A stretch of 63,407 bases of DNA, filler included, from Stramenopiles sp. TOSAG23-6 (lineage: Eukaryota), in assembly GCA_900128565.1 (NCBI GenBank). It is 12 parts of 12 records of this genome, joined end to end, with 100 filler letters (N's around TTAATTAATTAA, not from the genome) between each part and the next. Parts side by side here need not be neighbours in the genome. Positions count along the whole stretch, not along the records: positions 1 to 6,063 come from LT636788.1; positions 6,164 to 12,219 come from LT636789.1; positions 12,320 to 18,370 come from LT636790.1; positions 18,471 to 24,519 come from LT636791.1; positions 24,620 to 30,654 come from LT636792.1; positions 30,755 to 36,788 come from LT636793.1; positions 36,889 to 42,900 come from LT636794.1; positions 43,001 to 49,009 come from LT636795.1; 4 more parts are not named here. The stretch is one strand, 5' to 3'. This document shows positions 1 through 63,407 of this stretch, one piece after another (positions within the stretch are counted from its first letter, which is position 1; every line of letters begins with the position of its first letter). The translations under genes and the position numbers were made by a program. The notes beneath the pieces are model-generated. The model saw only the letters and a list, made by a program, of their open reading frames with translations. It did no database searches and was not told the DNA's origin.

Positions 1-80
1 TTTTTTGAGTGAAAAAATTCATTAGGTACAAAATTTCGTATGAAAAAAAATTAAAATAAAAGCGAATGTTGAAAATGTAC

Positions 81-1216
81 ATGACGGTGTAAGTCGCCGT
101 TCATTATTTGCTCAATTCTGCTTCGTTTCCGTTTCGTCCTTTCTTTGATGAGCTTCACTTTATGCTTCGGTATTTCCCTAAAACAATTTTGGAAATCTTC
201 ACGAGACCACCAATGGCAGAATAAGTCTGAAAGATTTTTTATTTGGTCACTGTCTACTAATGAATCTTCTTCAGATAAATCTATATGTAAAAATTCAATT
301 TGAAAAGGACGTATTTTTTTTTCATTATATGAAATCACTTTTGCCATTCTCCAAGAGCCTCTTTGATCACCCTTTAATGCCGATGAAGGTACATACACTT
401 GTTGACCAACGATACTATCAGTTATTTCTGAAATTTTCATTAATGATAAACGAGACGGCCTTGGCATCCATGTATCACCTGAAGTACAAGGAAGGCATAA
501 TGAAATTGTAAGTAAACAAATGTACAGGCATTTTCACCAGAATTTTTACACTGGTAACTTTCTCCATCACAATTTCCTCTACAGACTATACAATGAAACA
601 ACTTTTCATGTTTTGTTCTTTCAACTAAATTATTCGGAAAATATGAATGCCTGTATTTCTTTGGGAGGGTAATAAGTGATACGCCATCATCTGCAAAAAT
701 ATTTCTGACTGGAGACGTTTTTTTTCCTTCCACTTCAAGAGACACTTTTGTAGGGTTTGTAGGGTTTGTAGGGTTAGGAGCGAAGATGGTTTCAGTTGAT
801 TTATCCGTAACCAATCCTAAATCTTTCGATACGGCAACATCAGATGTACAGTGTTGATCTGAAGGTATGGATGATGTAAGGGGTATTATCGTTTCGGTTT
901 CCTCGTTGAAAAATCCAATCTCACGACATTCCTTAAAACTAGAAGAATCCCAACCTTCGACTGGGTTGTCAAGAATGTCTCTCTCACTTTTTAAAGTTTT
1001 AACATAGTATGAAAATGTACCAAGTGGTGTCTTGCCACTATTCAATGGTGGTTCTTCAACATCAAAGGCTATAACACGTACAATTTCCCAGCAAGTAACG
1101 TACGGCGGAACTGGAGGTGCAGCAATTACAGTATTAACGAGGTCATGCCCTCGTTTTTCTATCGATAGCATGGGATACGCCTTCATGGCTTCTACTGATA
1201 TATTTAATACATTCAT
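81..1216 (-). CDS. Hypothetical protein with Cys-rich (PHD-like) segment, 3' partial; small intron ~470/479-525; family intron donor at 80
   Basis: ORFs 440-1222 and 51-467 join in frame; CIVC..C..C..W pattern. Confidence 0.5.
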
Positions 1217-1536
1217 TTGCACTTATTCAAAACTCAATACATATTGGCATTCCGCTCTTGCTCTCTCTGGATGAACTAAAGTGTATGATATATTATAATA
1301 AGGACGTTCTATTAGAAGAATGCGTCTTGTTCTCTCTGTGAAGCTTTCCAAGTTTGACATGAGGCATCATTTGATTTGACCCGCGCTCCGCGCGGTTCTT
1401 TGACACGTGTCGTCACGTCTTGTGTCACTCTCATGAGTCATGATCAATGATGTCACTCAGTTTTTGAATAACAGAAACAAGTTTTTACAAGTTTACTTTA
1501 GTAAGTATTACAAAAATTTAACAATCGACTCAGATT

Positions 1537-2079
1537 ATGTTTTTCTCTTCCAATTCCGAGACAAAGATTATTTCACTTGATTCAGAAGTTGAATTACTTC
1601 CAGATACAAACAATAAGATATTGATACCAAGGAAAACTATCATGAAATGTTCAACCACCGAAGTTTTTACCTTCTCTGCGTCTAGAGAAGATGAAGATTG
1701 GTTCTTTGTTCCACTTGATTTTTCTTCAGATGAAGAAGCAATCCTGGAACTTTCTGAGTCACGCGTGACATCTGTGGACGAAGGCGATACTAGCGCGAGT
1801 GATGACAGTCTCGACTTGATGTGTGAGGACTTGATGGATAGTGACGAGTGGGAAGATGTCAAGAGTGAAATCTGCAAAATACACGACAATGAGGATACAC
1901 CGAGCTTGCCTCAAAGATATTTATCAAATGATAACCAGTGTTCTAAAAGTGTTACAAACATTCCAACGAATCGATGGGCAGGATGGAGTGAGAGACTTTC
2001 CCAGAAGGAACTTGAAAGAAGAAAACAAAATATCGTGTGGCGTAGATGGATACCAGGTACCATCCCCGCTACTAAATAA
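1537..2079 (+). CDS. Hypothetical acidic protein
   Basis: 180-aa ATG ORF downstream of a divergent promoter-like region; no recognised domain. Confidence 0.45.
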   Translation: MFFSSNSETKIISLDSEVELLPDTNNKILIPRKTIMKCSTTEVFTFSASREDEDWFFVPLDFSSDEEAILELSESRVTSVDEGDTSASDDSLDLMCEDLMDSDEWEDVKSEICKIHDNEDTPSLPQRYLSNDNQCSKSVTNIPTNRWAGWSERLSQKELERRKQNIVWRRWIPGTIPATK

Positions 2080-2232
2080 TGCATACATATGAAAATCAGT
2101 TGAAGATAATTTCGTTTATTATTTTCATATATGAACGATATTTGTCAAAGTTGTTGTTTGTTTAGTGAGAGAATATTAATAAACCCCATATTTTATATTT
2201 AAAAATTCTCAAAATACAAATCTTGCGTTTTT

Positions 2233-3730
2233 TCATTTGCGTTTTGGATTCAACTTTTTCCAAACGATGTACCCAAGAGCAGCGACACTAGTACACGTAG
2301 CCAATATAATAAGCGATGCCGTCAATCTATTATTTTTGTCTCGCTTTATTGAATGTTCCATTTGAAGTTTTATATTTGAATGGATAGATTTTGCACTGCC
2401 ACCACGTGAAAGTTTAATTTTATCACGAAATAATGTATTTCTGGTAATGCTAAGCTGTAACCCACGAATGCTATCATCGCATTTCACCATAGAGAACGTT
2501 TTGGTTTTACAAAATATTTCATTATTTGTAACTATCATACAACAGTCATCTGAATTTTCATTATTATTTTCATTATTGTTTTCATTAAAATGTTCATTAA
2601 AATGTTCATTAAAATGTTCATTAAAATGTTCATTATTGTTTTCATTATTATTTTCATTATTGTTTTCATTAAAATGTTCATTATTATTTTCATTATTGTT
2701 TACATTAAAATGTTCATTAAAATGTTCATTAAAATGTTCATTATAAATATATTCATTATTGTTTTCATTAAAATGTTCATTATCCGTCATAATAGCATTA
2801 TTTTCATTCGATATACGAATTGGACAGATTTTGACTTTGGAATGCGAGAAACAAATTTTATTTGAAGCAACCAACATTCTTCCTTTACCACGTAAACTGA
2901 TATAACCACCATGCAAAATATTTTCTTTCAACGAAACTGAAGCTTGATTTGTATGTATATGTATTTTGGAGAAATATTTGAAAAAAAAAAACTAAAATTT
3001 GTTAGGTACAACATTTCGTACGAAAAAAAATCGATTTTTTGTTTTAAAAAAAAAATAAAACATACATGATGCCTGCATTGGAGAAGAAAATTATTATATA
3101 CCATTGGCGTTGAACCTCGAAGGACTACAACTGAGCAGGATGTATGATGCGATACAATATTTTGCTTCATATCTGCAATCGAATTCATATCAAAATAAAA
3201 ACCTATTTTTGACATTTCCAAAATGTTTTGTTGAAAAATTGGAATTAAATTACTTTTTTTCCTATCCTCGTATAGAAGCGAATGGCCAATCACCATGATA
3301 TTTTTTTCTCTAGAAAATGATATAATATTTCTGTATATTAAACAAGCATTAGGTTTAGAATGTACAGAAATTTCTTCTGCTTCTTCTTCAACTATATCCC
3401 AGAATGAAATAGATCGACGCCCAAGAGTCATATATTGTAAAAAATATTTTATTTTTTGAAAATTTGTTAGGTACAAAATTTCGTACGAAAAAAAAAGATG
3501 TAAAGAATTTTTTATGGTTGATTACGTACATTGACATTTCATCTTTTGAAACTGTAATTCCAACCCCATTATGAAATATACAATTATTTCGAATCATGGG
3601 AGAACGTCTTAAAACGCATATACCTGTTCCATAACCACTTATTGAATTACGAGAACACTGTGCCATGGATGTGCGTACAATGATACCAACACTTCTACCA
3701 AAATTCAACCAATCTGATGTTTTGGGGTCT
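2233..3730 (-). CDS. Right-handed beta-helix repeat protein with C-terminal TM segment, 5' partial (exons 3730-3530, 3429-3066, 2958-2233)
   Basis: GI.V...S.P.I.NN.I beta-helix-type repeats; two GT-AT introns give in-frame joins (SM|TLG, HH|IHT). Confidence 0.6.
2560..2782 (-). repeat. 12-bp-unit coding tandem repeat (NEHF / NENN)
   Basis: Repeated aaatgttcatta units on + strand. Confidence 0.85.
2959..3065 (-). other. GT-AT family intron
   Basis: CAT|gtatgt..core..ccaaaatacat|ATA in frame. Confidence 0.8.
3430..3529 (-). other. GT-AT family intron
   Basis: AT|gtacgt..core..acaatatat|G in frame. Confidence 0.8.
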
Positions 3731-3822
3731 ATGTATTTTGGAAAAATATTTCAAAAAAAATAGTTAGGTACAAAATTTCGTACGAAAAAAAAAATTCGAA
3801 TTTGAAAAACAATAAAACATAC
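3731..3822 (-). other. Family intron, probably chimeric between two genes
   Basis: Phase-1 donor from bHLH gene, phase-2 acceptor into beta-helix exon. Confidence 0.6.
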
Positions 3823-6004: not shown

Positions 6005-6236
6005 GTACGTTTTATTTTTTTTTCAATTTCGAATTTATTTTTTTCGTACGAAATTTTGTACCTNNNNNNNNNNNNNNNNNNNNNNNNNNNNNNNNNNNNN
6101 NNNNNNNTTAATTAATTAANNNNNNNNNNNNNNNNNNNNNNNNNNNNNNNNNNNNNNNNNNNNAAAAAAAAAAAAAAAAAAATTTGTTAGGTACAAAATT
6201 TCGTATGAAAAAAAAATTGTAGAAAAAAAAACGTGC

Positions 6237-9200
6237 AGTTGGGAAAATCATGAGCACGGTGACTCGAACCAACAGGTGCACACCCTTCAATGTATGAAAT
6301 GTCAGGCGAAGGAAATGCTGAACGTCGAACAGATTTTAATACTGTTTTTGTTAATGTATTTTGACCTCCTTTTTGTATCACCATTTATTTAAAAGACATA
6401 TTTAAATTGTTTTTTGTTAGGTACAGAATTTACTATGAAAAAATATTAATTTAATTTTGTTTTTAAATAGATTATAAAAAACATAAAAAAACATAAAAAA
6501 ACATAAAAAAACATAAAAAAACATAAAAAACATAAAAACATACACTTTTTTACCATAACCTGTAGAGAACTCGGTGTTACTGTATGTACCATCCGTTTGG
6601 GGGTAGTTTGCTTCTGTTATAGTTTGTACAAGAATACTCTTTTTGCTCAATATTTTTATGACTGATCCCGAAATTGTATTTCCAATTCCGTCAGATTGTG
6701 TCACAGACGCTCCAACGTATGAATTGTCCATAAATAAGTTTTCTCCAAAAGAAAGAGTAATAGGTAGGGCAGTTACATCTACCCACTTCCATAAACTGTG
6801 AGGCGTGCCATCGTCACTGCTCTCACTATATTTTTGTCTTGTTTCAAAGTAATAGCCTTTATATTCATCCAAATACTGTAAATCTATATTTTTTACGCTT
6901 TTTTTAAAATCTCTCCAACGTCCGAGTAAACCGAAACCATCCGTTTGGTATATCGATTGTGTTTGATATGCACCAGCATCGGTATCTGGTATTATTAGTT
7001 TGCATTGTATTGTCTGCCAAATGAAAACAACGCATATATCCTTTCCTGTAGGGTATACGTCAGCGACATTTGCTAATTCCATGCTCCATTTGTTAACATC
7101 TTCACTAACATCTGAAAGCCTAATTCTCCAAAGAGATGCATCATCTGCAAGCGCAAAAGAGACTCCCGTAGTATACGTCGAGTCATCGTATTTAAGATTG
7201 CTAGCAGAGGCGCCGACCACTTTGACTACTTTTCGACCACCAGGCAATGTATGTCGTATAGGAATCCGTGATTTGTTTGCATCATCAGTTTGAGCTGGAG
7301 CTTTCCGCGTTTGAAACGAGCCATCCTCATATAAAATTGTGATTTGCTCCCAGGCAACCGCACTTACTTCGACAGCTCTTGCGGAGACTTTATCATTCCA
7401 CATTGGGATCGCTACTGCAATTGTGTCCAATGTATTTTCAGTTCCATCATGTATTGTGAAAAAATATTAAAAAAAATCGTTAGGTACGAAATTTCGTATG
7501 AAAAAAAATTAAATAAGAAATTCATATAAAACGTACATTGGTGAAACGAGCTCTAGAAAATGCTGAGCCATCACCATCGTCATCCATCATCTGGAATAAG
7601 TATTTNTCAATTGTTATTTCATCAGATGTTGCTGAGTGATGTACGTAATTTATATCAATATTATATAGAAATGGATTTGAATATATCTTGGTCAATTCCG
7701 TTGCAGTGTTGATGTCTATACTTCCATCGCCAATGCTAATTGAACGCCCAAAACATTCTACAATGCCTGTGACTCGTATTACACATAGTAAAGTATCACT
7801 AGATGACCCATTCAAGTTTTGTGAGGCTTTGCGAACTCGTTTACATTGCCCTCCTTGAGGATGTTTGAAATATTTAGAATATAAAGTAGTATCCGATGCT
7901 GTATACCCAACATCTATCGCACTGGATCCTTTGCAAAATAAACGTCCTCTACCGTCAGTAATACACATTCCAGAATCTGTGAGTGAAGCGTCTCGAATTG
8001 GTGAAGAAATGGTGGAACTAAAATCAGGATCAAATGTAGTTTTATCCACTTTGCATAATAAACATCGTTTGTAATTATTTTGTTCCTGATTTAGTATGCG
8101 TCTTGTTTTACATTCATTAAATGCTGTGTAACATCGAACACCTTTACCCCTCGCTTCAGAAGTTTCACCTTCATCAAAATCAATATTAAACTTTATAGTA
8201 TCCTCATAAGAAGTATAAAAATTTGAACTACCAAAGCTTAATAAAGTCTCCAACTTGTCATCACCAGGAACGCACCAAATTTCAATCGTCCAACGCTCAC
8301 TATTAATGATATATTCTCCATCAGTTACATCATCAACACCTGAAAGTTTTGATAACATCTTGAAGCATGAAGTTTTATTTCCAAACGATGGTGTGTGCAA
8401 TATTGACACTAATTTACCTGGCTTCCATGTCCAATCTGCAGCTTCACATGCATTACGTGTAGCATAGTTCGTGCTACCTGTCTTCATACAACAACTTTGG
8501 TCCTGAGATGGACACACAATACCATCCAAAGACAAGGCATTCTTAATCACATTAAACCGAGTCCAAACTTGATGTTCTCTCATTTCTTCAGTAAGATTTC
8601 CATTTGCGTCAGGTATGTAGCTGGCATCAACATATATTCCATGAGCGCTCGGTTTTACTCTTGACTCCAAAAATCTCCACTCATTATATGAGCTACCGCC
8701 TGGAAAATACTCATCAGGTATAATTCCAATGTTATTGCCCATTGCCCAATGGCACACATCCGACGGTGCTGTTTTTTTTGCAGCTGGAGAATATTGATCT
8801 TTATTTGCACAATATGATGTCTGTGCTACTCTTGGTGAAGGGAAAGACAGCTCTTTACAAGTATTTTCTCTGCATTGAGTTTCTGCATTCTGGCTGCTAC
8901 CTAGCACATTTTCGGTCCAATCTGTTATTTCTGTGCATGATCTACATTTTGGAGTTACCAAATTACTCGGCACAGTATTCATTGATTTAGGTCTCGCAGG
9001 GAAACTATGTCGAGACCACACGCACCCATTGGCTGCATAGCAAGCCCAAGCACTTTCATCAAATTGGGCACAGTTGGAGCATAATTTATCATTTGAACTG
9101 TAGTTTGAAAATTTATTAATATTATCTGGAGAGTAATCATACTGGACTTGATCAACTCCCCAACACCAGAATGAATTATCTTCTAATATCACACAACGTT

Positions 9201-10242: not shown

Positions 10243-12213
10243 ATGATGCAAACTTTCGTAATACTCTTTTTTATTTATTTGACGTATTGTAGTGTGAAAG
10301 TCAGTGGTTGCCGTGTAGGAGTTAGTGAAAATATCTGTAAAGGATATGGCGACATGCTAGCAACATGTCGTGTAGTAACTTGTCAAGATTCTCTATGGCA
10401 ACCAACATCACCTGCAAATGCCCCATATGAAGTTTCAACCACACATTGTCAATGTATGTGCTCCGATGGAGTGAGTTCTGATCGAGCGACATGTTTAGGC
10501 AAAGGTGGGGGCGTTGAATGGACTATTGGACCATACACCTGTTCCAACGGTGTAAGCAACACACGAAATAAATGTATTCAAAGTGGAGCAAATTGGATAC
10601 CTGGTATCCCTGAATGTACAGTGAACCCTCAAACAAATACAACCAAAACACAATGTACTACAAATGGTGGTAGTTGGGTTATTTATGGATCATGTTCAGA
10701 CGGGCTTGTTCGAAAAACTCAACAGCAATGTTCCAATACAAAAGCAACGTGGGCAGTTGGCCCACCAGTATGTCTTAATAAACATGGCCACACGGCCACT
10801 CAAAAAGGGGGCAGAGAAATCACTGACCAAACTACATGTATTAAAAGAAAATTCACGTGGCAAGTAGGTGTAGAGACATGTTCACACCCAGGAAAAGATA
10901 TAATTGATGAAGCGTCCTGTGTCAATGTACGTTGACTCCTCATAAATTTGTTTTACTAATTTTGAGTTTATTTTGCTTTCATTGTGGTATTTTTTTTATC
11001 TTCGAAAATTGTGTTTTTACTAAAAAATGAATTGATTGTACTACAATATTTTTCCACAATATATCAGGGGTTTACATGGTCTTGGGATGGAGGTGATGCA
11101 TGTCAAGATGAATGTATCTGTCAAAACACAACCAAGTTTGGAGGAACATTTTGCAATAAAAAAGGATTTTGTCAAATTGATTGGCATTGTCGTAGAAATA
11201 ATGATAGTAGTGCCGTATGTAATACTACGAGTGGAACATGTGTTTGTTCAGATGATAAATTTGGTGGACCGTGGTGCGCCGCCGCAACCGTTACTGCATT
11301 TGGAAAGAAAGCAAGTAATATGGATAGAGGATATTGCGCGCGCGATGAAAATTGTACAGGTAGAAATGATGTTGATGCTGTATGTTCTTGGAGTAGTAAC
11401 TATTGTTTATGTTCTGATCCAAAATATGGTGATTCATATTGTGATGAGCGGGGAAAGTGTTCAAATGATGTTCACTGTAGAATGTTTGGGGATATGCAAG
11501 CAACATGTGTTGGAATGATACCAAAATCATGTTCGTGTAGTTCCGGATTTTCTGGGCCGAGATGTCAGCCCTCAACTACTATTGATATGACGGGTATTCA
11601 AAGACGAACTTTATTAGCAACAAAAACAAGTGACAGTGATACACAAAATGGTATGTGTGCCATGACTGTGGATGGGAGAGTCCTCTGTTTTGGTCATTTT
11701 GATGAGAGTTCAAAGTATATGTACTCATTAGAAAATACATCTACTGACGTTGCAGATGCAATAGATACAATGGGTAATTTTATTCAAGCTTTACCTGTTG
11801 CAGGTATTCCAAGTGATAAGTATATAGTTTCACTTGTTAATGCTTCTGGAAGTAGTCCTCAAATTCTCGCCGTTTTGTTGAGCGATACAGCTGCTTCAAC
11901 GTCAACTAGAAATATTTATACATTATCAAACCGTTGTGGAGCTCCTGAAGATGATGGGATTGATTTATGGGAATTGGCACCAGGAGGTAGTCGACGTTTG
12001 TCGGAGCATCTTAGTACAAGTGATGATGATAATGGTGGTGGTGGTGGTGTTTTTGATGATAATGATGGTGATGAAGTGTGGGAAAGACGTCGATTAGGTC
12101 CTGGTGGTGGTGGAGGTGGAGGTAGTGGAGATAGTGGAGATAGTGGTGGTGGAGATAGCGGTGGTGGAATCTTTCATATTTTGTTGATGTTTTTCATTTA
12201 CTTTTGCGATTGA
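10243..12213 (+). CDS. Secreted Cys-rich EGF-like/RCC1-like protein related to the divergent neighbour, 3' end uncertain
   Basis: Signal peptide, C...G..W repeats, same Cys units as the 6237-9882 gene; intron 10927-11064. Confidence 0.7.
10927..11064 (+). other. Degenerate family intron (GT-AT; a CAG 3 nt downstream is also in frame)
   Basis: AAT|gtacgt..ccacaatatat|CAG. Confidence 0.7.
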
Positions 12214-12382
12214 ATCTTTNNNNNNNNNNNNNNNNNNNNNNNNNNNNNNNNNNNNNNNNNNNNTTAATTAATTAANNNNNNNNNNNNNNNNNNNNNNNNN
12301 NNNNNNNNNNNNNNNNNNNAAAATCGTTAGGTACAAAATTTCGTACGAAAAAAAAACTCGATTTTGAAAAAAAAAAACATAC

Positions 12383-14539
12383 TTGATTCCACTGCGTCTA
12401 ATGTAATACTCTTTTTTCTTGTTACAGTATTTCGTCCACTAATGCTTTCCCGATGAATATTTTCTATTGTTGTAGGCGAATGGCACACACCAATAGGTAC
12501 TGTATCTACATTTTCAAATGGATTAAATGAATGTTCTGTAGGATGTTCTTTAGGGTTAGGGTCAAAATATTCAATAGAACCATTGTTTTTGTTAGGGTTA
12601 GGGTTAATACCTTGAGGCGAATCAAAATAATGTTGCTTGGAATAGCCATTTCCTATATGTTTTTCTATAGTATCTAAATCATTGACTTCTTGAACAATTT
12701 CCTACAATGTGAAAAAAAAATATAATTTTGAAATATGTTGATGAAATCAATCAAAAAAAAAATGAAAATGTTTCGTTTTTTCGTTTTTTCGTTTGGTACG
12801 AAATTTCATACTAAAAAAAAAATTAAATTTGAAATTCGTGATTAGGGTTAGGGTTAAACATACGTCACCATCACCAAATAAAGTGGCCTCCCAGTCTAAA
12901 CAATCTGCTTGTGCTTCTTCTATAGCTGAAGTTGTGATAATCTTTTTTTCATACTTCTTATTACTATAACTATTACTACTACTTCGATTCATCTCTTCTG
13001 TAGTCGAATTATTATAATTTGAGTTATTTTTTCCATTCAATTCATTCATTTTTTTTTGAGATTCCTCTGAATTGTTGACATCAGAAAACCAAACTCTTCG
13101 TTCATTCAACTTTTTATGCCAACTTTTCGCCTCCTCAATAGTATTACAGCGCAATATTTTCACCATTCCACCTTGAAAAGTGAGAACAATATCATGACTT
13201 AATAAAGATACAGAACGTAAGCGTTGAAGATTATAACTTCCATCAGGATTGTTTTTTAGCATGTATTGTAGAAAAAAAAAAAATTGTACAATTTGTTAGG
13301 TATGAAATTTCGTATGAAAAAAATAAAAAAAAAATTGAAAAAAAAAATAAAAAAATTTTTTTTTTGTACAATTTGTTAGGTATGAAATTTCGTATGAAAA
13401 AAAAAATTGAAAAAAAATAAAACATACATTATAGTATCTTCCCCTGATGAGTTTGCAATACTTGAAGGGCCATAATTTAAATATATGTATTGTGAAAAAA
13501 TATTAAAAAAAAAATCGTTAGGTACAAAATTTACTATAAAAAAACAAATTCGAAATTGAAAAAAAATAAAACGTATGAATTATTCACCCAAAAATATCGA
13601 AGTTGCCAATGGCCTCGTTCTGATTTCTTCTTTAATAACCCAAAACATGGTGAACATAAAGTTGAATCTGTAGAATAAACAGATTTCCTAAAACCTCTTC
13701 TTTTTACCAAGACTGGTGCACTTTGAAAGAAACCTGAATTTCCTTGAAGCTGATGTATTTTGGAAAAATATTTGAAAAAAATTCGTTAGGTACAAAATTA
13801 CGTACGAAAAAAAATTTCGAATTTGAAAAAAAATTAAACATACATACTCTTCTTGTGGTTGAACGACTGATCTTGTCACTGTAATCCCAATATCAGTACT
13901 GTCGGAATTACTATATTCCGTGCTATGTGCACGACGTAGCATATGATGACCTGTAGAATGAAGAGAATTTGTAGTGTTTAAAGTTGCCCCACCTCCGAAA
14001 TGCATGCTTGGCTTTGATCCTTGTAATCGTAAAGTTGCTTCATGTACAGACGAACGTTTAGACAATTCAACCGCACGTTTCATTGCTTCCTTTTCACTCA
14101 TTTCTCCTTGTAATCTGGTTGTATCGATATGGGATGCTCTGTGGGCAGAAGCACGTGCAGCAGACGATACATGACGTTGTACTAACGAGACTTCAGGACG
14201 ATACTGTTGACCTTGTCTCATTTCTGGAATAACTACACGAAGGATTGAACCTTCACGAGCACCAGGTGGAACAATCACACGAACCAATCGGCCATCTGGT
14301 GCTGGTGCTGATATAGTTGCACCAGGTCTTGCCTGAGGAGGTAATTTCACAAGAAAATCGACTTTTGGTATTATGCCATGACCAGACGCATTATTAGTAC
14401 GAGCAAGTTGCGAAGCAAGTTCTACAGAACGAGCGTAATTAGCATCCCTTTCTGTCTGTGATACACGTGCTTCATGATTAAATTTTGCTTGTAATCTATG
14501 GGCAAATTCTTCATCTGTCTCACCTGGAAGCATATTCAT
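12383..14539 (-). CDS. PH-domain protein with N-terminal UIM-like motifs, 3' partial (exons 14539-13844, 13752-13577, 13484-13428, 13260-12864, 12701-12383)
   Basis: Spliced product gives GLLKKKSERGHWQLRYFWVNNSYLNY..LRCNTIEEAKSWHKKL (PH). Confidence 0.75.
12702..12863 (-). other. Family intron with canonical GT-AG ends
   Basis: GAC|gtatgt..degenerate core..cacattgtag|GAA in frame; AG sits where other copies have AT. Confidence 0.8.
13261..13427 (-). other. GT-AT family intron with duplicated core
   Basis: AT|gtatgt..two core copies..tacaatacat|G in frame. Confidence 0.8.
13485..13576 (-). other. Family intron with AT-AT ends
   Basis: TC|atacgt..cacaatacat|A restores PH strand NNSYLNY. Confidence 0.7.
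13753..13843 (-). other. GT-AT family intron (downstream CAG also in frame)
   Basis: TAT|gtatgt..ccaaaatacat|CAG. Confidence 0.75.
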
Positions 14540-43503: not shown

Positions 43504-45450
43504 ATGCCTATAACAAATGAAAAGGTCACTGATCTTGAAACAACTGGAACAAACCAAGAAAAACAGCACCAGACACGAAAACTATTTAAAGTTCCGCTCA
43601 TTAACAAAGTGGTGGATGTAGGTGGTGGTGCAAAACTTGGGTACTACTATACCACGATATTTCTTGGAAATCCACCTAGACGTTTTAGCGTAATATTAGA
43701 TACAGGTAGCTCCAAGACGGTGATTCCATGCGTAACGTGTACGGTTTGTTCAGGTCACGCTTTCAATCCTAACAAAAGTACAACTTCGAGCATAACAGAT
43801 GAAACCTTTAAGGATAATTATGAAGAGGGTTCTTCGTTGTATGGAAAGTTTATTACAGACCTCGCATGTATTGGAATAGCTACATCGTCGTGCGTTGGAA
43901 ATACCCTCCCTTTTATGTTTGGTTGTGCTGATTACATGTCTACAGCTTTTCAAAAACAAAAAGTTGATGGTATCATGGGACTAGGAAATGGAGAGTATAG
44001 CATTATAGAATCAATGAAGGTGCAACATCGAATTCAATCAGATACATTTAGTTTATGCTTCAACACAAATGGTGGTGTATTAACAGTAGGCGGTTATGAT
44101 GATACATTTCATTATAATAACAATTTTAGTAAAATAGTATGGACATCATTACTAACAGATTATTTAGGTAGACTAGGATCTAGATACACCGTTAATGTAG
44201 ACAATATTTCAATGAAAGCAACAGGAATGCAATCAAAACATCAACTTGATTCTAATCTTTTCAGTATAACTGCAATTTTAGATAGCGGTACATCAGATAG
44301 CTTTGTTCCTCGAGATATTTATATCTCATTTAGAAGAAACTTTGTTTTCCATTGTAGAGAGATGGCTGAGCACACAGAAAAACGATTAAACAATACTGAC
44401 CAATGTCTGAAAGAACCATGCGGATGTTCGGGGAAATATATAGATACTGATGGTGACAATATATGTCTTTACAAGCCAAACTCGGTACCATTAAATGAAT
44501 TTTTCAACTCTTTTCCAAATATTTACATTACGCTTAATGGAGGACGCTCTGTGCGTATGTTTTAGTTTTTTTTAAGTTTTGAATGTATTGGAGTTTTTCC
44601 CGAAACATGTTGTACCTAACAAAATGTACAAAAAACAGTATTTTTTCACAATGTATGAAGTCGCCATGGAGAACGTCCACGAAGCCAGGAGAAATCTTCT
44701 CTCTTTCGTATTGAAAATGACTTGTATTCCCTATGCATACCTCCATCACAATATTTCTTCAAAAGTTCTCATAATAATATTTGGTGCATTGGGATATTAC
44801 CTGATGATGCAAATAATGAATTCATACTAGGTGCAAATATAATGCAAAATTATGACGTCATTTTCAATCGAGAAGAGAGAAAAGTCGGATTTGTGAGATC
44901 TTATTGTACACAAAATACACAAAATACACAAAATACAAAAAATATAAATAGTTGTACTTTGCTTGAGATGACTTCTCAGGGTGATAAAGTTAATCAAAGT
45001 CCATCAATAATACAAGATGGCCATGTTAATTCTTCTCGAAGTAAGACAAATACTATGAATAACCCGAACCAAAAGGACATCTTTAACAAACAAAATGTAT
45101 ATGAAATTGCTACATTTAAAAAAAGAAATCCAGAGGGGTTTTATCAATCAATACTCGATGAAAGTAAACATAATATTTATGATGCAATCAAATATGGAAA
45201 ACGTGATCATTTTGAGTTATTTATATGCATGTGTATATTGTTTGGGATTATAATATGTATTGTTTTATATGGTTGTTATAAACAATGTTGTAAAATCATA
45301 CGATGTGGAAAGCAACAACATAACTATTCTAGAACATCAAATGTTGATATTGATGTAGTTCCTTTTGATATTGAATTGTCTAATTTGACTGTTGACAATG
45401 ATATTCAAAATGAAAATAAAATAGAAGAATTTGGACTAGATGATGGGTAA
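43504..45450 (+). CDS. A1 aspartic protease with C-terminal TM (plasmepsin V-like architecture); GT-AT intron 44555-44656; start uncertain
   Basis: ILDTGSS, ILDSGTS, DGIMGLG, ILGANIMQNYDVIF. Confidence 0.88.
44555..44656 (+). other. GT-AT family intron (register-defining)
   Basis: C|gtatgt..cacaatgtat|GA gives CGA; shifting by -1 or -2 creates in-frame TGA. Confidence 0.8.
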
Positions 45451-51365: not shown

Positions 51366-54300
51366 ATGGAGAAAAGTAGTCATACGTTGTTGGGTTCAGT
51401 GACTGAGACACCATCGTATCACACTCTCAACGAAAGCGAACAAAACAAACAACACAGAAGTCAACAGGACGAAAGTTCTACTTCTCTGTCGTCGTTACAG
51501 TCGTCACACATAGATTCACTGTCTCCTAATGATATATTCCCATCATCCAACGTTTATAAAATTGAATCAGACAAAATTCATACTGTGTTTGATTCTACTA
51601 AATTTATTAACTTACAGGATACTTACCAAAAATCGAGAACAGAAACGTCGGCAGAGCGCCGCTTAAAAGCAGCTGCTGAAGAAAAAATTCTGCTCAAAGC
51701 GGCTAATGCAAAGTTAGCCAAAGCTCGTTTTTATGATGAGGAGTTTTTGATTCGTACAAAATTATTACAATTATATGTGAGTTTTCATCATCATTTTTCA
51801 AGTTTTTTTTTCGTACGAAATTTTGTACCTNACNAANTTNAANTTTTTTTTTACAATTTTTTCACAATACATGGAACACTACTACACAAAAAGTTGAATA
51901 TTGTACGAAATTATCGTAACAAATTTAATGGTGTAGTTGACTCTATTCGTCAAAAATCTCAAAATATTGTTTTGAATAAAACGAATAATAGTATTAGTAG
52001 TACAACTACTAGCGTACAACAAATGAATACAACTTATTCTATAGTAAAAGATATATTGGATGATATACTTTTACATGTCTTATACCCTAACCCTAATCCT
52101 ACTAATGTAAGCCCCAACCCTAATTACCCTGACCCTAACCCTACTAGTGAAAGCCCTAACCCTACTAGTACAAAAACAAAAAAAATACCGAATACAAATG
52201 TACCAAATTCTGTACCTAATCAAACGATTCATGATACATTACAAAAATGTAAGGAAAGTATTGACACGAAATGTGAAACAATTCAAAACAAGATTGAAAT
52301 ACAAAAAGTAAAACATATACAATTTCAACAACAATTAGCCACGTGGCAAAAAGAAATTGGACATTCAAGAGTTCCTGATGAATTAGATTGTCCTTCTGGT
52401 GGTACTTTTAAAATTTTTTTTTCATCAAGAATTTCAAAATATTTTTTTCGTACGAAAATTTGTACCTAACAAATTCTGAATTTTTTTTTTCCAGAAATAT
52501 TTTTTGACATCACATGTGTGCTCGATGATCCCGGTACCGTGCTTGTACGTAAAGTAAAAACAAAAACAGATGACAAACATAATAAATCTGGAAATGTTTT
52601 ATTGGAATATCAAGTTGGTCAGATTATGGTATCAAGTGATGCTCCAAATTTTAATGGAAGTGAGTTCAAAAAAACTTTGCTTGAGGAGCAACAAAAATTT
52701 CAATTATTAAAACAAAAACAAGAAGAAAAAAAAGAAGAAAAAAAAAGAAACAATGAAAAACGAAGAGAACAACAAAAACAACAAAAACAACAAAAACAAC
52801 AAAAACGACTACAACAATACCAACAATACCAACAACAAAAATACCAACAACAACAAAACCAACAACAACAAAACCAACAGAAATATAAAGCTGGATTTCA
52901 ACAGTTGAATACAAAAAATACAAAAAATACAAAAAATACAAAACATACAAAACATACAAAAAATACAAATATTTCTCATTTGATGAATGCGTATACTCTT
53001 CAGCTTAAACGTGAAATGTTACCACTAAAACATCGAAATGCTTTATTACGTGATAGAATTCTTCGTGAAGGATCAAAAATTATTCAGCAAAATTTACAAT
53101 ATAATCCATTATCTACTTTATCATTACCACAATACCAACAACAACAATACCTACAAAAACAATACCAACAACAATATCTACCATCTCAACAACAATTTCA
53201 AAAATACCAACAACAACAACAATTTCAAAAATACCAACAACAACAACAATTTCAACAATACCAACAACAACAACAATTTCAACAATACCAACAACAACAA
53301 CAACAACAATACCAACAACAACAGCAACAATCTAAATTTTTGAATACAGTAAATAATCCATTATTACAAAGTCAATCAATACCAAATAATCCATTATTAC
53401 AAAATCAATCAATACCAAATAATCCATTATTACAAAGTCAATCAATACCAAATAATCCATTATTACAAAGTCAATCAATACCAAATGATCCATTATTACA
53501 AAGTCAATCAATACCTCCATTAGTACAAACTTTCCTACCTAATTTTGTACCGTCAGAGAATACTCAAAGAATATCCTGTAATTCAAATTATTCAAATTCC
53601 AATTCAAATATGAATAATTTGAATCATTCAAATATGAATAATTCAAATTATAAATTGAATAATTCAAATTATTCGAATTTGAATAATTTGAATAAAATGA
53701 GTAGCCAAGAAGAAGCAAAATGGATGAGATTGTGGAAACTACAAAATTCTGTACCAAATTTTGTACCTAATTTATTTAGGCAAACAAACCTCAATCATTC
53801 AGATTTTTATTCTACATCGAATACAACAAATTATTCTATACAAAATTTTGTACCTAATCAAAATAATCAAAATAATCAAAATGTTGCATTACATCAAAAT
53901 TTTGTATCAACTAAAATGTCTCAATTAAATACAGAAAAAACGGAAAAAAACAACCTACAATCTCAACAAGAAGAAATGATAACTTCAACATATGTACAAA
54001 GTTTTGTACCTATTCAAAAAAATCAAAAAAATCAAAATAATCAAAAAAATCAAAAAAATCAAAATAATCAAAAAAATCAAAATAATCAAACCTTTGAAAA
54101 GGATGTAAAAAATTTGAAACGTAAACATGACAACATTCAAAATGTAAATTTGACAAAAGAGCAACAAGAAGTATACGACAATTTACCAAAAAAAAGAAAA
54201 ATTTGTTTTGCGAGAAATGTTTTAAAAGCAAAAGAATCAAATTCAGTTGATATTCAATTAAAACATCAACAATATCATTTACTACAACATCAACAAGATT

Positions 54301-54741
54301 TAAAATCAGCTGAAATGTTTTGTAAAATGGTTTTCGATAAAAAATCACCCACAAAACTTGAAATATTGAACCCTAACCCTAACCCTACCCTAATAAAAAT
54401 GAAATGTAATGTGAATAACAAAATAAGTGAAACGAAAAAAAAAGATGATGTGAAAATATGCGTTTACGTGGGATGTGAAAAAAAAAGTCAAGGTCGGACT
54501 CCCTTTTGTGTTTTACATGGCGGGGTTCGTTACACTAGAAACATTTTTTTATACATTTTTTTATACATTTTTTTTTTTACATTTTTTCAAAATTTCAATT
54601 TTTTTTTTTTTGCTGTATAAAAAATCTATACCCAACACAAAATATTTTTATACTATATTGTAGACAATACATGGTAAACGGTGTATTATTGAAGGATGTA
54701 CCAAATCAGCTCAGGGTAAAACAAGAAAATGTATTGCACAT
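51366..54741 (+). CDS. Gln/Asn-rich protein with C-terminal WRKY19-like C-x4-C..C..HGGG zinc fingers; introns 51777-51872, 52402-52515, 54525-54672; 3' partial
   Basis: CVYVGCEKKSQGRTPFCVLHGG|GKRCIIEGCTKSAQGKTRKCIAH. Confidence 0.7.
53353..53515 (+). repeat. 33-bp coding tandem repeat x5 (NNPLLQSQSIP), next to poly-Q tracts
   Basis: Direct inspection. Confidence 0.85.
54525..54672 (+). other. GT-AT intron (register-defining)
   Basis: GGG|gttcgt..gacaatacat|GGT restores HGGGKRC; the AT-AC register would give HGDGKRC. Confidence 0.85.
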
Positions 54742-55260
54742 GCATGTTTTATCTTTTTTTACAAAAAATCGAATTTATTTTTTCGTACGAAATTTTGTAC
54801 CTAACAAATTTTTTAGAATTTTTTTTTGAAATATTTTTCCAAAATACATAACAATAGGGCAAGGAACGAATGCAGAATTCGAATGCGTTCCAGAATGCAC
54901 TCAAAAAAGTGACTGCGATTTTGTTGGTTGTTCGACGTTTCCTGGGGAGAATGTGACAAATTATGATTGTGTAGAACAGAATGGGCAACAAGTATGCCGT
55001 AATGTATGTTGTATTTTTTTTTTTTTTTGTAATTTTTTTTTTTTTTTTTTATTTTTTTTTTTTTTTAAGAAAAAATAATACCAAAAAAAAACTTTAAAAA
55101 AAAAAAAAANNNNNNNNNNNNNNNNNNNNNNNNNNNNNNNNNNNNNNNNNNNNTTAATTAATTAANNNNNNNNNNNNNNNNNNNNNNNNNNNNNNNNNNN
55201 NNNNNNNNNTCGTACCTAACAAAAACAAAATCAAAAAAAAAATATTTTTTCACAATATAT

Positions 55261-59041: not shown

Positions 59042-60131
59042 ATGCATGCTATTGCTCTATTTATTTTATTGGCAAATACTATTCCAGTATTTTTTGCTAT
59101 CCCGGTATTTGGAGACAATCGTGCATATATGCTTGGTCTCATGGCCAAGAAGAACAAGGGTGTTGCGGATGTCTCTTTCGAAGACTATGAAAAGTTCATT
59201 CTTGACCAACCCAGGCCGTATAACATTGTTGTACTTTTCTCATCAAAAGTAAATTGCTATTATTGTCCAGAGATGGCTGCTCAATTTTCTACTTTGGCTC
59301 AGAATTATTGGTCACAAAACCCAACACGAGATGATTTACACTTTGTGCAATTAACGTACAAATATGGCAAAAAACAAAAGAAAAAAAGAAATGATAATAA
59401 ACCTTTTGATGATTTCAAACTAAAATCGGTACCTCAATTAATGTATCTTGGTAGAGCAAAGGATAAGGATGATGTATTTAATGTACCAAAAGGAAATGTT
59501 TTCCCTCATCTGGAAGGAACTGCTGAACAAATGGCGACTTGGTTAAAACGGCGAGCAAAGATTGAAATTACAATTAAACGGTCTAATATGCTTGGTATAT
59601 TTATACTAACCACTATTCTTTGTCTAGTTGCATTCTTTGCAAAAAAAGCTCTTTCCCATTTGGATTCAATTTTACGAATAATTCGTCACAAAAAAATATG
59701 GCTATGGGGTTCACTAGCGGTGTATATGGCGTCGATTTCTGGTATTATATTTGATTTAATTCGAAACCCCCCTCCTTTTTATTGTACATCCAAAGGTTGT
59801 ATGTTTATTCATCCACAATCTCAACAACAATTTATAGGTGAAGGTTTGCTTATTGGCTCTTTATATATGGGTATGGCATATTGTGCAATTTTACTAAATA
59901 AGAGCGTGAAATATGTATGTTTTACTTTTTTTAAATTCGAATTTTTTTTCGTACGAAATTTTGTACCTAACGTTTTTTTTGAAATATTTTTCTACAATAC
60001 ATGGCCCTAATATGGATGATCACAGTTATACAATTATGACTTGTGCAGGTGGCTTTATTTTTGCATTTTCTATTATGTTGACTCTGTACAGAAGTAAGAA
60101 TCGGTGGTACCCTTTCCGATTACTATTTTGA
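59042..60131 (+). CDS. OST3: Oligosaccharyltransferase OST3/OST6 (MAGT1/TUSC3-like) subunit; GT-AT intron 59915-60002
   Basis: PRPYNIVVLF, CYYC thioredoxin-like motif, IRNPP, QQFIGE, YRSKNRWYPF. Confidence 0.88.
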
Positions 60132-60439: not shown

Positions 60440-61105
60440 ATGCATCGCCGTGCTTACCAACGTAAATCAGAAAATAGTTTTAGCTCAATCAGTGGTCAAA
60501 ATATTCAAGACGATGCAAATGAAATTACATTTGCGTACAATTATCGTGTCGCAATTTTTGCGTTACCAAGTTTCTTTGTCATAGTATTATTAAGTGGAAA
60601 TATGTTTTGTAGAGTATTTGGTTTGGGTGTAATTTTGGTGAATATCGCAAAATTAACTGGTCAAGTTGTGGGTGCACAGTGTCTCTTACTTTCCACTTTT
60701 CTGGTAACATCTACAATCTTGGTTATAAGTGTAGCACCTCTAATACATTATTCGTATTGGAATATTCTACCAATAGTTAGTTTAATTATACTCAATACTT
60801 TAAATATAACTTGGTTTGCACTTCAAAACCCTTGGTTATATAAAAACTTTCCATTCTGTTCGGTATTTTTAGAAAGGCTTATTTTTACAGTGCTCCCAGT
60901 ATCTGCTCCAATAGTGCTTACGTGGTTCATTTCTAAATTTGACATTCCCAATGTTGATTTAGTTCTCATGTTTCAGTTAGGAATGGGGATTTATATATAT
61001 TCTTCATCGTTAACTCTCTCTTCAATTTCTCTGAAAAAAAGAGAAAACCAAATAGAAAATAGAAATCAAATACAAATATACGAAACACAAAAATCGCAAC
61101 TACAT
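60440..61105 (+). CDS. Multi-pass membrane protein, NO EXINE FORMATION 1-like, 3' partial
   Basis: FAYNYRVAI..WFALQNPWL..FLERLIF..P resembles the NEF1 N-terminus. Confidence 0.6.
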
Positions 61106-61559
61106 GTATGTTTTTTTTCAATTGTTTTTCAATTTCGAATTTTTTTTTTCGTACGAAATTTCGTACCTAACAAATTTTACAAAAAAAAATATTTTTNNNN
61201 NNNNNNNNNNNNNNNNNNNNNNNNNNNNNNNNNNNNNNNNTTAATTAATTAANNNNNNNNNNNNNNNNNNNNNNNNNNNNNNNNNNNNNNNNNNNNAATT
61301 TCAAATGAATAATTATGCTATTAATTCAAAAACCTGCTTTGTTATAATAAATAGTACTATATAATAATTTTTAATAATCAAGAAAAAATAAAAAAATGCC
61401 ATTTTTAACCACCTAAAACACACAAAATCCCAGAATTTTCATACTCTTTTTTCTTCTTTTTTCTTTGTTTCATACTCAAGCTTTTTACATTTCAAATCTG
61501 CTTGCATTTGCTTCAATTGTAACTCAGCTTTTGCTAACTCAAGTTCATCAGAGGCAACC

Positions 61560-62298
61560 ATGCCTGCTGCTCGACATGGAGATGTGATATTGTTGGACTC
61601 TAAATCAATTGTAGAGTACATTAAAAAAACATGGTCACAAGAATCACTTACACCTGCAAGAGAATCTGGTGCTTCAGCATTGATCAACTGTGGATTAACA
61701 GATCATTTGTGGACAATACTTTCCAAGACTGGTAAAGAGCAGGACATTGGCAAAGCAGAATTCTTTCGCGAACTCGAGGAAATTGATGCATGTATATCAA
61801 ACAATAATCATAATTTGTTTGTAGAATCAAATAATGAGAATATTTCCAATATTTGGCTTGATGGTCGTGACTCACCATCATTAATTGATTTAGGTTTGAT
61901 GCCTAAACTAGCAACGGCGATAATTGCATCGAAACATTTAAGTGGAATAGATATTTTTGAAAGAGGTATGTTTCCAGCGGTCAATCTATATTATAATTCA
62001 TTTATGAAATCTGATGTTTGGATTTCAAGTACCTCAACTGGATTCGATGAAGAAGCTGTTGTAATATTTTGGGGAGATTATTTAGTTAAAACTGGAGTTA
62101 GAGATACCTACGCACTTCCAAAGAAGCAGACTACGAAGAGAACAACGAAATCCTCAGAAGATAATACAAAAGAAAAGAAATTCTGGGAAACTATCAGAAG
62201 TAGTGTCTTCAAAACTACACCAGGTAAAATAACAAAACGACGTACATGGAAGAGTAAATGGAAGACTCCCATCATTATTGGTCAAAATGTAAATACAG
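61560..62298 (+). CDS. GST-fold (DHAR/CLIC-like) protein fragment
   Basis: P....G..LLDSKSIVEYI; WLDG..PSLIDLGLMPKL. Confidence 0.55.
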
Positions 62299-62402
62299 GT
62301 ATNNNNNNNNNNNNNNNNNNNNNNNNNNNNNNNNNNNNNNNNNNNNTTAATTAATTAANNNNNNNNNNNNNNNNNNNNNNNNNNNNNNNNNNNNNNNNNN
62401 NN

Positions 62403-63407
62403 AATTGAACAAGTGTCGAAAGAGAGTTTAGATGAATCATTTTATAAAAAACGTGCAATGAAAAGGTGGATTCTATTATTTATAGTAGCGACTGGAACTG
62501 GTGCTTCTAGTGCTCTGATAACGATGGGGATTGATGTTTTGCGAAATATAAAGTTTGGAAACTGGACAAATGAACTTTTGCAGCAAGAATTGCGAGGTGA
62601 TACAAAAGAACTTACGCCTTCCGTATTTATTAAATTTAGTGCTTTTAATATCGTTTGTGCATTAATTGCAGTTTTGTTTGTAGTTTGGGCACCCGCTTCC
62701 GCTGGATCTGGTGTACCTGAAATTAAAGCTCTTCTAAATGGTGTAAAAGTCCCGAAAGCTGTACGCTTGCGTACGTTTTATTTTTTTTCAATGTTTTATC
62801 TAAAAAATATTTTGTACGAAATTTCATACGTAACAAATTTTACAAAAAAAAAATATGTTTTCACAGTATATGTACGTTAATTGCAAAAATGCTCGGCGTA
62901 ATTTTTTCCGTTTCTGGAGGATTACCTGTAGGTAAAGAAGGTCCTATGATCCATGCTGGTGCGGTCCTTGGTGCAGGAATTTCACAAGGCAAAACTGTTG
63001 CTCTTGGTTGTGATACTTCTTTTTCAATACTACGCGATTTTAGAAATGATAAAGAGAAAAGAGATTTTATAGCATGTGGAACCGCAGCTGGTGTTGCAGC
63101 TGCTTTTAATGCACCAATAGGAGGAATGTACGTTTTTTCATCAAAAAATATTTTTTTTTTTCATGGAAAGTTTTGTACCTAACAATTTTTTTTAGTAAAA
63201 AAACAAAAATATTTTTTCACAATATATGTTATTTGCCCTCGAAGAAGGTTCCAGTTGGTGGCATCCTAGCATGAATTGGCGATCTATTTTTTGTGCTATG
63301 ACAAGCTCTTTTACTTGTGTACAAATTTTGAAAGCAGTAAGTTTAGATAAAAATTCATTGATTAGTAGAAATCCAACTGATAATGTTGGTGGTGGTGATG
63401 GTTTTGG
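62403..63407 (+). CDS. CLC chloride channel/antiporter (CLC-7-like), internal fragment; GT-AT introns 62771-62871 and 63128-63227
   Basis: [31 protein letters not shown]. Confidence 0.93.

Follow-up and report, generated by a model that had tools for sequence, protein, structure and literature searches.

The window analyzed in this study comprises 63,407 nucleotides of DNA from Stramenopiles sp. TOSAG23-6 (assembly GCA_900128565.1) and consists of 12 assembly pieces placed end to end, which are separated by 11 identical spacers (N44, TTAATTAATTAA, N44) at positions 6064-6163, 12220-12319, 18371-18470, 24520-24619, 30655-30754, 36789-36888, 42901-43000, 49010-49109, 55110-55209, 61197-61296, and 62303-62402. 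The first ten pieces drop in size from about 6.06 to 5.99 kb and are followed by a 1.0-kb piece, a pattern of size-sorted concatenation. Genes on either side of a spacer are therefore not linked, as the window represents concatenated pieces and not one locus. The pieces have a GC content of 27-41%, and the recognisable genes encode NOP2, DDX46, a CLC-6/7-like channel, OST3, RPP40, bHLH, YEATS, FSH1, and NIF proteins as well as a plasmepsin V/BACE-like aspartic protease. Here, we show that the interruptions of genes in the window are copies of one repeat family, an introner (intron-generating repeat), and that the large majority of its copies carry a GT at the 5′-end and an AT at the 3′-end.

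A profile of the element built from 10 copies was used for an nhmmer search on both strands of the window, yielding 44 matches at E<1e-3 in 62 kb, which correspond to roughly 40 distinct elements or ~1 per 1.5 kb. As defines an introner, similar introns were found in NOP2, DDX46, CLC, OST3, the aspartic protease, and many orphan open reading frames (ORFs). Full copies match profile positions 1-99, indicating that the similarity reaches both splice boundaries. The elements are 86-167 nt long and 19 copies share a mean pairwise identity of 74% (range 58-93%); three blocks are near-invariant, namely the 5′ site, the core with the branch motif, and the 3′-end, and the variable parts carry many indels. 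Moreover, 34 of 35 matches with an adjoining long ORF lie on the strand of that ORF (p 1e-9), and the sole antisense match represents a palindromic core that is inverted inside an intron with both ends in sense. The core of most elements contains an 18-nt palindrome (CGTACGAAATTTCGTACG), perfect or near-perfect, which is located directly 5′ of the branch motif and overlaps it (e.g., 35592-35609); weak matches on the reverse strand are due to this palindrome, which may act as a transposition signal or help to present the branch site. Many pieces of the window start or stop inside an element, as expected, because a dispersed repeat breaks the assembly. Three introns are composite, two of them with a tandem second core and 3′ block (36016-36211 and 13261-13427) and one with an inverted core (16653-16806), which suggests nested insertion or internal duplication.

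The family consensus reads (A)(T)/GTAYGTTTT(A) ... YRTACGAAATTTYGTACCTAAC ... T-rich ... (GAAATA)TTTTYCAMAATAYAT/(G), where slashes mark splice boundaries; the end is also written TTTYCAMAATAYAT. In a logo of 22 complete copies, positions +1 to +6 are almost fixed (G 21/22, T 21/22, A 22/22, Y 22/22, G 22/22, T 21/22) and T prevails at +7 to +9 (18-20/22). The hexamer GTAYGT is present in 20 of these copies, besides one GTATGC and one ATACGT, and the variants GCATGT, GTGAGT, GTAGAT, and GTACTT occur outside the logo copies. The 5′ site conforms to the U2-type pattern GTRNGT, which is complementary to U1 and U6. Likewise, a branch-point motif, CTAAC or GTAAC, was found in 22 of 25 copies, followed by T-rich sequence, and the branch A is positioned 31-46 nt from the intron end in 20 of 22 copies (motif UACCUAAC). 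The 3′ block YCAMAATAYAT is conserved as strongly as the 5′ site, with the terminal AT present in all 22 logo copies; the last three bases of the intron are CAT (17/22) or TAT (5/22), and TAC in two AC-ending introns. On the exon side, A prevails at -2 (17/22), T at -1 (18/22), and G at +1 (12/22; p 7e-5 for the enrichment of G). An AT directly precedes the GT in 16 of 22 copies (p 5e-12), and the exon triplet -3 to -1 reads YAT in 12 and AAT in six of the 22. As to hallmarks of a transposon, the only terminal inverted match is ATGTAT/ATACAT (6 bp, including the AT flank), the flanking repeat measures at most 2-3 bp, AT(G), and exon position -3 does not track intron position -3. The exon-side AT may be either a 2-bp (with G, 3-bp) target-site duplication that supplies the acceptor or the trace of an insertion or proto-splice-site preference.

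The boundaries of 27 complete copies were settled by reading frame or homology. The tally comprises 22 GT-AT, one GC-AT (54742), one AT-AT (13576), two GT-AC, and one GT-AG, that is, AT ends in 24 of 27 copies, AC in two, and AG in one, where a U2-type intron would end in YAG. In the longest-ORF frame test, a GT..AT cut was scored on joining the longest upstream to the longest downstream frame (chance 1/3), and 19 of 22 copies passed (binomial p 4e-7 vs 1/3). Two of the three misses, 35555 and 13576, come in frame by translation of the whole gene chain, and the third, 3822, is in frame only with an AG located 2 nt past the AT of the element (..ACATAG/). Scanning broadly for in-frame excisions of the type GT..N did not discriminate, as deletions that keep the frame within long ORFs pass as well. 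Removal of the elements opens frames of 158-1656 codons, including stop-free multi-intron chains of 1656 codons (two introns), 1046 (four), 646 (three), 449 (three), and 367 (four), as well as 276 codons in DDX46 (three introns) and 267 codons in CLC (two introns); six single-intron genes are opened in addition. If retained, 16 of 25 copies would bring a stop into the reading frame. The GT-AC ends at 36016-36211 and 54525-54670 were assigned by frame only. For 10927 and 13843, which we count as GT-AT, an in-frame CAG follows 3 nt further on, and both the AT and the CAG end fit.

Independent of the frame, homologous proteins fix several junctions. The NOP2 exons align to residues 443-560 and 561-592 of human NOP2 and to 398-517 and 518-549 of the S. 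pombe protein, abutting exactly in both, and to 321-438 and 439-486 of the closest relative P0003 (EukProt, 88% identity). The three CLC exons correspond to residues 67-177, 179-260, and 262-291 of CLC-6, leaving one split codon each at residues 178 and 261, and on CLC-7 (..220, 222-303, 305-..) again exactly the split codons are left. In both NOP2 and CLC, there is no GT-AG solution within the boundary ambiguity of a few bases, and GT-AT is the only boundary pair common to all NOP2 and CLC introns. The last two exons of DDX46 line up collinearly with the human protein at residues 986-990 and extend to its C-terminus, the last exon alone being weak (E 0.95). The OST3 exons follow their Pfam profile collinearly on either side of the junction (positions 257 and 265), to within about one profile position. 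In all, four junctions (one in NOP2, two in CLC, and one in DDX46) match solved homologues to the residue, and none of the four admits a GT-AG cut. The junction in the aspartic protease was not resolved by any alignment to homologues, the region being too divergent. DDX46/Prp5 is itself a helicase of the U2 small nuclear ribonucleoprotein, and its presence in the window was counted for a spliceosomal reading.

Which feature of the 3′-end is recognised can be narrowed from the sequences past the branch motif, which hold on average 2.3 YAT and about 5 AT per copy. As several YAT and AT lie in this stretch, a bare AT cannot define the acceptor. One of these ATs belongs to a conserved GAAATAT, 15 nt upstream of the end, that would often be in frame, but homology rules it out in NOP2 and CLC. 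Nor does an AG rule fit: six of 25 copies contain an AG past the branch motif, and its use would break the frame in the two CLC introns and introduce a stop at 44555. That AGs and earlier ATs are skipped suggests that the 3′ site is probably read as a longer motif and not as a bare dinucleotide. RNA folding of 18 copies yielded weak structures (z -3.2 to +0.9, mostly around -1) and no common fold except the central 18-nt palindrome. Pairing of the intron ends (AUGUAU/AUACAU) was likewise considered and rejected: a compensating base was seen by eye in one of ten GTAC copies, there was no covariation, and folding is weak.

These results confirm the observation made in a sequence-only reading of the same DNA and support its interpretation in part. 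The AT-ending segments do interrupt the genes where it had placed them, far beyond chance (44 nhmmer matches, frame p 4e-7), and GT-AT, which it had named the dominant class, holds a large majority in the window, with 24 of 27 copies ending in AT. Its claims that NOP2 and CLC require a GT-AT cut and that the AG located 5 nt upstream of the end of the CLC intron 62771-62871 shifts the frame are borne out by the exact junctions, the lack of a GT-AG solution, and the frame of that AG. Its count of 30 copies (28 GT-AT, one AT-AT, one GT-AG) is close to our tally of 27, and the flanking AT repeat it described is present in 16 of 22 copies and absent from six. The intron-encoded structure that it had offered as an alternative finds no support in the 18 folded copies. 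Beyond that reading, the segments form one proliferating repeat family, AG and AC ends coexist with AT ends, and the window is a set of joined pieces and not one locus. Complete and partial copies are listed in Table 1.

Table 1. Copies of the element and one non-family intron in the window (slashes, splice boundaries; +/-, strand).
Position	Strand	Feature	Basis
2959..3065	-	GT-AT element, CAT/GTATGT..AAAATACAT/, bHLH-domain gene	profile, frame, open chain
3430..3529	-	GT-AT element, AAT/GTACGT..ACAATATAT/	profile, frame, chain
3729..3822	-	GT-AG element; AT end (3731) out of frame, next AG (..ACATAG/) restores	chain
7449..7536	-	GT-AT element, AAT/GTACGT..CACAATACAT/	profile, frame, single-intron translation
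10927..11064	+	diverged copy, GTACGT..CACAATATAT/CAG; AT end and CAG 3 nt on both in frame	frame, translation
13261..13427	-	composite GT-AT, duplicated core, AAT/GTATGT..CTACAATACAT/	profile, frame, chain
13485..13576	-	AT-AT element, 5′ ATACGT	in frame in gene chain
13753..13843	-	element, TAT/GTATGT..AAAATACAT/CAG; AT end and CAG 3 nt on both in frame	frame, translation
16653..16806	+	composite GT-AT, sense ends, inverted palindromic core inside	profile, frame, translation
21385..21476	+	GT-AT element, gene of >1650 codons with SPRY domain	profile, frame, chain
23506..23592	+	GT-AT element, same SPRY-domain gene as 21385	profile, frame, chain
30161..30246	-	NOP2 intron, CAT/GTATGC..AAAATACAT/, contains 19 N	exons abut exactly in homologues
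30952..31052	+	DDX46 C-terminal intron 1, GT-AT	profile, frame, chain
31130..31265	+	DDX46 intron 2, GT-AT, CCCTAA-repeat subfamily (repeats near 5′-end)	frame, chain
31770..31867	+	DDX46 intron 3, GT-AT	frame, chain; collinear with human DDX46 986-990
35555..35658	+	GT-AT element, CGT/GTACGT..CACAATACAT/, flank repeat only T	profile, chain
35813..35912	+	GT-AT element, 5′ site GTAGAT	chain
36016..36211	+	tandem/composite, end ..TTTTAC/ (GT-AC); AT 5 nt earlier leads to stops	frame, chain
36333..36465	+	GT-AT element, TCT/GTATGT..CACAATACAT/	profile, frame, chain
44555..44656	+	aspartic protease intron, TGC/GTATGT..CACAATGTAT/G, no flanking AT, internal AG leads to stop	frame, translation
51777..51872	+	GT-AT element, 5′ site GTGAGT	chain
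52402..52515	+	GT-AT element, 5′ site GTACTT, end ..ATCACAT/, no flanking AT	chain
54525..54670	+	non-family intron, GTTCGT..GACAATAC/AT, AC end 2 nt before AT	frame, chain
54742..54849	+	GC-AT element, 5′ site GCATGT	profile, frame, chain
59915..60002	+	OST3 intron, GT-AT	frame; Pfam profile collinear across
62771..62871	+	CLC intron 1, TGC/GTACGT..CACAGTATAT/GTACGTT; AG 5 nt before end out of frame	exact vs CLC-6, CLC-7
63128..63227	+	CLC intron 2, AAT/GTACGT..CACAATATAT/G; internal TTTTAG out of frame	exact (GGM/LFALEE)
6005..6063	+	element 5′ half, contig end	profile
12320..12382	-	element 5′ half, contig end	profile
24449..24514	+	element 5′ part, contig end	profile
24620..24671	+	element 3′ part, contig start	profile
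30601..30654	-	second NOP2 intron, 3′ part, contig end (..AAAATACAT/GAC)	profile
30755..30829	+	element 3′ part, contig start, internal TTTTTTTAG	profile
36906..36978	-	element 5′ part, contig start	profile
61106..61196	+	element 5′ part, contig end	profile

A scan of metagenomes for a 22-nt core pattern identified the element on one environmental contig (L001), where it reads CAT/GTATGT..CACAATACAT/GG and its removal lengthens the ORF by 47 codons. As this independent contig carries the same element, the family is not an artefact of one assembly. The neighbouring gene on the contig contains a canonical in-frame intron at 409-536 (+), GTACGT..GTACCTAAT..TTCACAG/, indicating that AG acceptors coexist with the family in this lineage. 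The TTCACAG end resembles the family end TTCACAATACAT, which hints that the latter may derive from an AG acceptor context. The core pattern had no match in viral contigs, and the scan of metagenomes with the aspartic protease exon revealed no relative. With DDX46 exon 3, a word search gave no match and a full HMMER search gave best matches of 35-56% identity, and the word search with OST3 gave one match of 58% identity; neither these nor the best match of NOP2 (88%) came from the species studied here. Words sampled from the contig 30755-36788 are shared with a small DNA run (0.90), a seawater metagenome (0.23), and four seawater metatranscriptome runs (0.06-0.10); we use these values as evidence neither for expression nor for habitat.

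Several further features of the window were noted. Telomere-like CCCTAA/TTAGGG repeats of 2-3 units lie inside introns at 31136-31152, 36596-36612, and about 12837-12856 (-); they mark an intron subfamily, GTAYGT..CTAACCCTAACCCTAAT, and CCCTAA also occurs in the spacer of contig L001 at about 880-960. Two candidate canonical GT-AG introns, called from ORF continuity only, are located at 34883-34945 (+; 63 nt, ..TTTTTCGTAG/) and 12702-12863 (-; 162 nt, ..CACATTGTAG/). With the standard genetic code, ORFs of up to 1661 codons are obtained, and many ORFs of 600-1600 codons lack any Pfam domain. The long Pfam-less ORFs include 37967-42952 (+), 7522-9945 (-), and 10237-12213 (+), among them the 1661-codon ORF with repeated W/K/R-rich units and cysteine-rich ones that appear EGF-like by eye and matched no model. 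The bHLH ORF had no match in the PDB, and the FSH1 hydrolase, searched against the ESM Atlas, matched only family clusters dominated by fungi, which is uninformative. Single N, five of them at 3-base spacing (51831-51843) within one element and others scattered (e.g., 57128, 57540, 57719, 57802), are found as well; all of them are probably ambiguous base calls of the assembly. NOP2 is 88% identical to its best match, a EukProt gene model, 74-76% to vertebrate proteins, and 69-76% to environmental sequences. The host is probably an uncultured protist and not a larvacean.

Taken together, we consider it probable, though by no means settled, that the family is an introner and that a U2-type spliceosome whose acceptor rule is altered (YAT, sometimes YAC) removes it from GU to AU. 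Judged from its sequence, the element is built like a spliceosomal intron throughout and departs from one only at the last base. The spliceosomal reading rests on the intron-like signals, the sense-strand bias, and the exact restoration of conserved proteins; from these we infer removal at the RNA level, the role of the major spliceosome, the recognition of the AU end, and the way in which the element transposes. A link of removal to transcription is indicated by the sense bias (34/35), by the stops that retention would cause (16/25), and by the preservation of the signal blocks while the remainder drifts. In the proposed mechanism, the element would be a mobile repeat that generates introns and measures about 90-130 nt. 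Each copy would contribute GUAYGU as a strong 5′ splice site of the U1/U6 type, UACCUAAC as a yeast-like branch site located 31-46 nt from its 3′-end, a U-rich tract, and UUUYCAMAAUAYAU as an extended 3′-end of its own. Once transcribed, the segment from GU to the terminal AU would be excised exactly by a U2-type spliceosome, with the host machinery accepting YAU, occasionally YAC or YAG, and skipping any AG and earlier AU between the branch and the end. The flanking AT (often AT..G) may represent a target-site duplication giving the acceptor, as in the introners of Micromonas and Fritillaria, or an insertion preference. Since a 5′ site, a branch site, and a 3′-end arrive with each copy, the dominance of GT-AT may reflect the success of one family rather than a rule for all introns.

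Some observations weigh against this reading. Under the established model of 3′ site docking, a pairing of G(+1) with U(-1) at the second catalytic step is unexpected. The acceptor rule is not uniform, because one copy needs an AG past its AT and two need an AC end, and boundary calls made by frame only are vulnerable to homopolymer errors in so fragmented an assembly. No small nuclear RNA (snRNA) was detected at Rfam gathering thresholds, nor any other Rfam match, in a search confined to the window, and word and HMMER searches with DDX46, OST3, and NOP2 found no transcript-derived protein near-identical to the window genes. Finally, in the 16 of 22 copies with an AT flank, cuts as GT-AT, TG-CA, or AT-AC would yield identical sequences.

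This ambiguity opens the way for an improbable alternative, namely that RNA splicing of the introner proceeds as above except for the boundaries, which would be AT-AC in most copies. The exon-side AT would be intronic and the last AT exonic, a cut that would use the known compatibility of A(+1) with C(-1) in U2-type or U12-type AT-AC introns and leave GT-AT to the minority without a 5′ AT. An AT..AC cut would give the same mRNA in those 16 copies, two introns end in AC by frame, and U2-dependent AT-AC introns are on record (PMC1557818). However, GTAYGT would then fall at +3 to +8, where it matches no known 5′ site, and in the six copies without the AT, including 44555 and 62771, only GT-AT or a meaningless shift fits. 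Moreover, both AC-ending introns begin with GT and not AT, and the AT is present in 22 of 22 copies at the intron end vs 16 of 22 at the exon flank.

Only marginally less plausible, and still improbable, is removal by a minor (U12-like) or other second spliceosome, expanded as in Physarum and tolerant of GT-AT and AT-AN. The U12-type consensus is /RTATCCTT at the 5′ site and TCCTTAAC at the branch, roughly 10-26 nt from the 3′-end, whereas the elements carry GT at +5/+6 in place of CC and a distance of 31-46 nt from branch to end. Conservation to +9 (GTAYGTTTT) and the likeness of the branch block ACCTAAC to TCCTTAAC are in favour of such machinery, but a repeat family that is young would show conservation past +6 in any case, and no U11, U12, or U6atac was found, the window alone being searched. 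The non-canonical ends recorded for U12-type introns do include GT-AT and AT-AT, and the minor machinery is able to splice them (PMC1557818).

The possibility that the assembly represents germline DNA, from which the elements are lost by programmed DNA elimination like the internal eliminated sequences (IESs) of ciliates, is very unlikely. Excision is precise, short flanking repeats are typical of IESs, and the source appears to have been amplified from few cells, given the small DNA run with 0.90 of the sampled words. Yet DNA excision would have no cause to favour one strand, in contrast to the observed sense orientation in 34 of 35 cases, and the elements possess a U-rich tract along with canonical signals at the 5′ splice site and the branch site. 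In addition, the standard code and ORFs of up to 1661 codons are unlike most ciliates, the flanks are not TA..TA as in ciliate IESs, CLC intron 2 cannot have TA-repeat bounds, and the same element is present on the independent contig. That the elements are never removed, being recent insertions in decaying genes or amplification or assembly artefacts, is hardly credible: the assembly is fragmented and contigs do break inside the repeat, but the NOP2, DDX46, CLC, and OST3 genes, which are essential and strongly conserved, are interrupted and yet intact once the elements are cut, and the orientation and frame statistics, the conservation of the splice-signal blocks in elements otherwise diverged to 74% identity, and the copy on the independent contig all argue against it.

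The non-canonical, transposon-derived introns of the larvaceans Fritillaria were reportedly described by Henriet et al. in 2019, and the introner elements of Micromonas and Aureococcus are said to have been described by Huff et al. in 2016. According to Soo et al. 2026 (PMC13326754), 3′AT is the commonest intron end in Fritillaria, with 44% in F. pellucida and 34% in F. borealis, followed in F. borealis by 3′AC with 28%. The cDNA-supported introns are mostly without GT-AG, 3′AT/3′AC splicing is backed by RNA-seq and Iso-seq, and each of the two cleavage sites follows a YAY triplet; the non-canonical 3′-ends are bound by divergent paralogues of U2AF (PMC13326754). Fritillaria is thus the closest precedent, in which 3′AT splicing is already known. 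There as here, introns spread from short mobile elements, end in AT or AC, contain a U-rich pyrimidine tract, and are accompanied by a few canonical introns; the YAY rule holds here at the 3′-end (CAT, TAT, TAC) and largely at the exon flank (NAT). In contrast, the main classes in Fritillaria start with AG (AG/AC, AG/AT), with degenerate 5′ sites and many classes, whereas the present elements combine a textbook GTAYGT and a yeast-like branch site in one class that makes up 22-24 of 27 introns, in a host that is probably not a larvacean, as judged from the NOP2 identities and the large Pfam-less ORFs.

In Micromonas introners and in the TAC flank of Fritillaria introns, a target-site duplication supplies the splice site (PMC11282704). 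The introners of many aquatic eukaryotes are near-identical short introns that occur by the hundreds or more in unrelated genes (Gozashti et al. 2022, PMC9860276; PMC11282704). Like the present family, they are similar up to both boundaries, carry one or both splice sites, may obtain a site from flanking repeats, and reside in aquatic hosts (PMC9860276; PMC11282704). They are, however, spliced as GT/GC-AG, whereas the elements described here end in AT and show no clear terminal inverted repeat or target-site duplication. The survey methods for introners accept only AG or AC 3′-ends (PMC12130899), and a GT-AT family would consequently be filtered out or mis-annotated.

GT-AT introns have so far been known only as rarities of animals and include U2-type (DGCR2) and U12-type examples, with seven U12-type GT-AT introns in four species (Sheth et al. 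2006, PMC1557818). They share the terminal dinucleotides and indicate that spliceosomes complete both steps on GU..AU, but they amount to a handful per genome vs the majority class formed by one repeat family in the window. Amoebophrya, hemistasiid diplonemids, and euglenids likewise represent marine protists with masses of non-GT-AG introns, partly transposon-derived, though these introns are reported to have no conserved termini or branch motif and to pair end to end, and U1 may be missing (PMC12621601; PMC11282704). The present elements, by contrast, are strongly conserved at both ends and at the branch site, fold weakly, and are A/T-rich where diplonemid introns are C/G-rich. Diplonemids and Mesodinium were considered as well and did not fit. 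No genome dominated by GT-AT introns was found in the literature searched, although supplements may hold per-class counts for F. pellucida. The novelty claimed by the sequence-only reading was too strong in that 3′AT is already the commonest end in Fritillaria (PMC13326754).

As to how this state arose, we see roughly even chances that an uncultured marine lineage of protists, not related to larvaceans, has come to use YAU (sometimes YAC) instead of YAG as the default 3′ site of its major spliceosome, recognised as part of CAMAAUAYAU and with AGs between branch and acceptor ignored, and that an introner with perfect 5′ and branch sites and this acceptor has filled its genes, at about one copy per 1.5 kb, which would amount to a second independent origin of YAY recognition. 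Few rules of splicing are as conserved as that of the 3′ AG. The small number of natural systems that break it (Fritillaria, Amoebophrya, and euglenozoans) are messy, with additional changes at the 5′ site and the branch site and, at times, in the snRNAs. If true, the shift from YAG to YAU would present a change of the 3′ site isolated from all other changes in splicing, and textbook 5′ and branch sites with only the acceptor changed would constitute a clean natural experiment. It would bear on the retuning of the second catalytic step and of early 3′ site definition (U2AF, Slu7/Prp18/Prp8), on the question of whether the Fritillaria rule of YAY before both cleavage sites is a general solution, and on the co-adaptation of introners and host spliceosomes. 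Moreover, gene finders and introner surveys limited to AG or AC acceptors would break nearly every gene of such genomes, including those in single-cell and metagenome assemblies.

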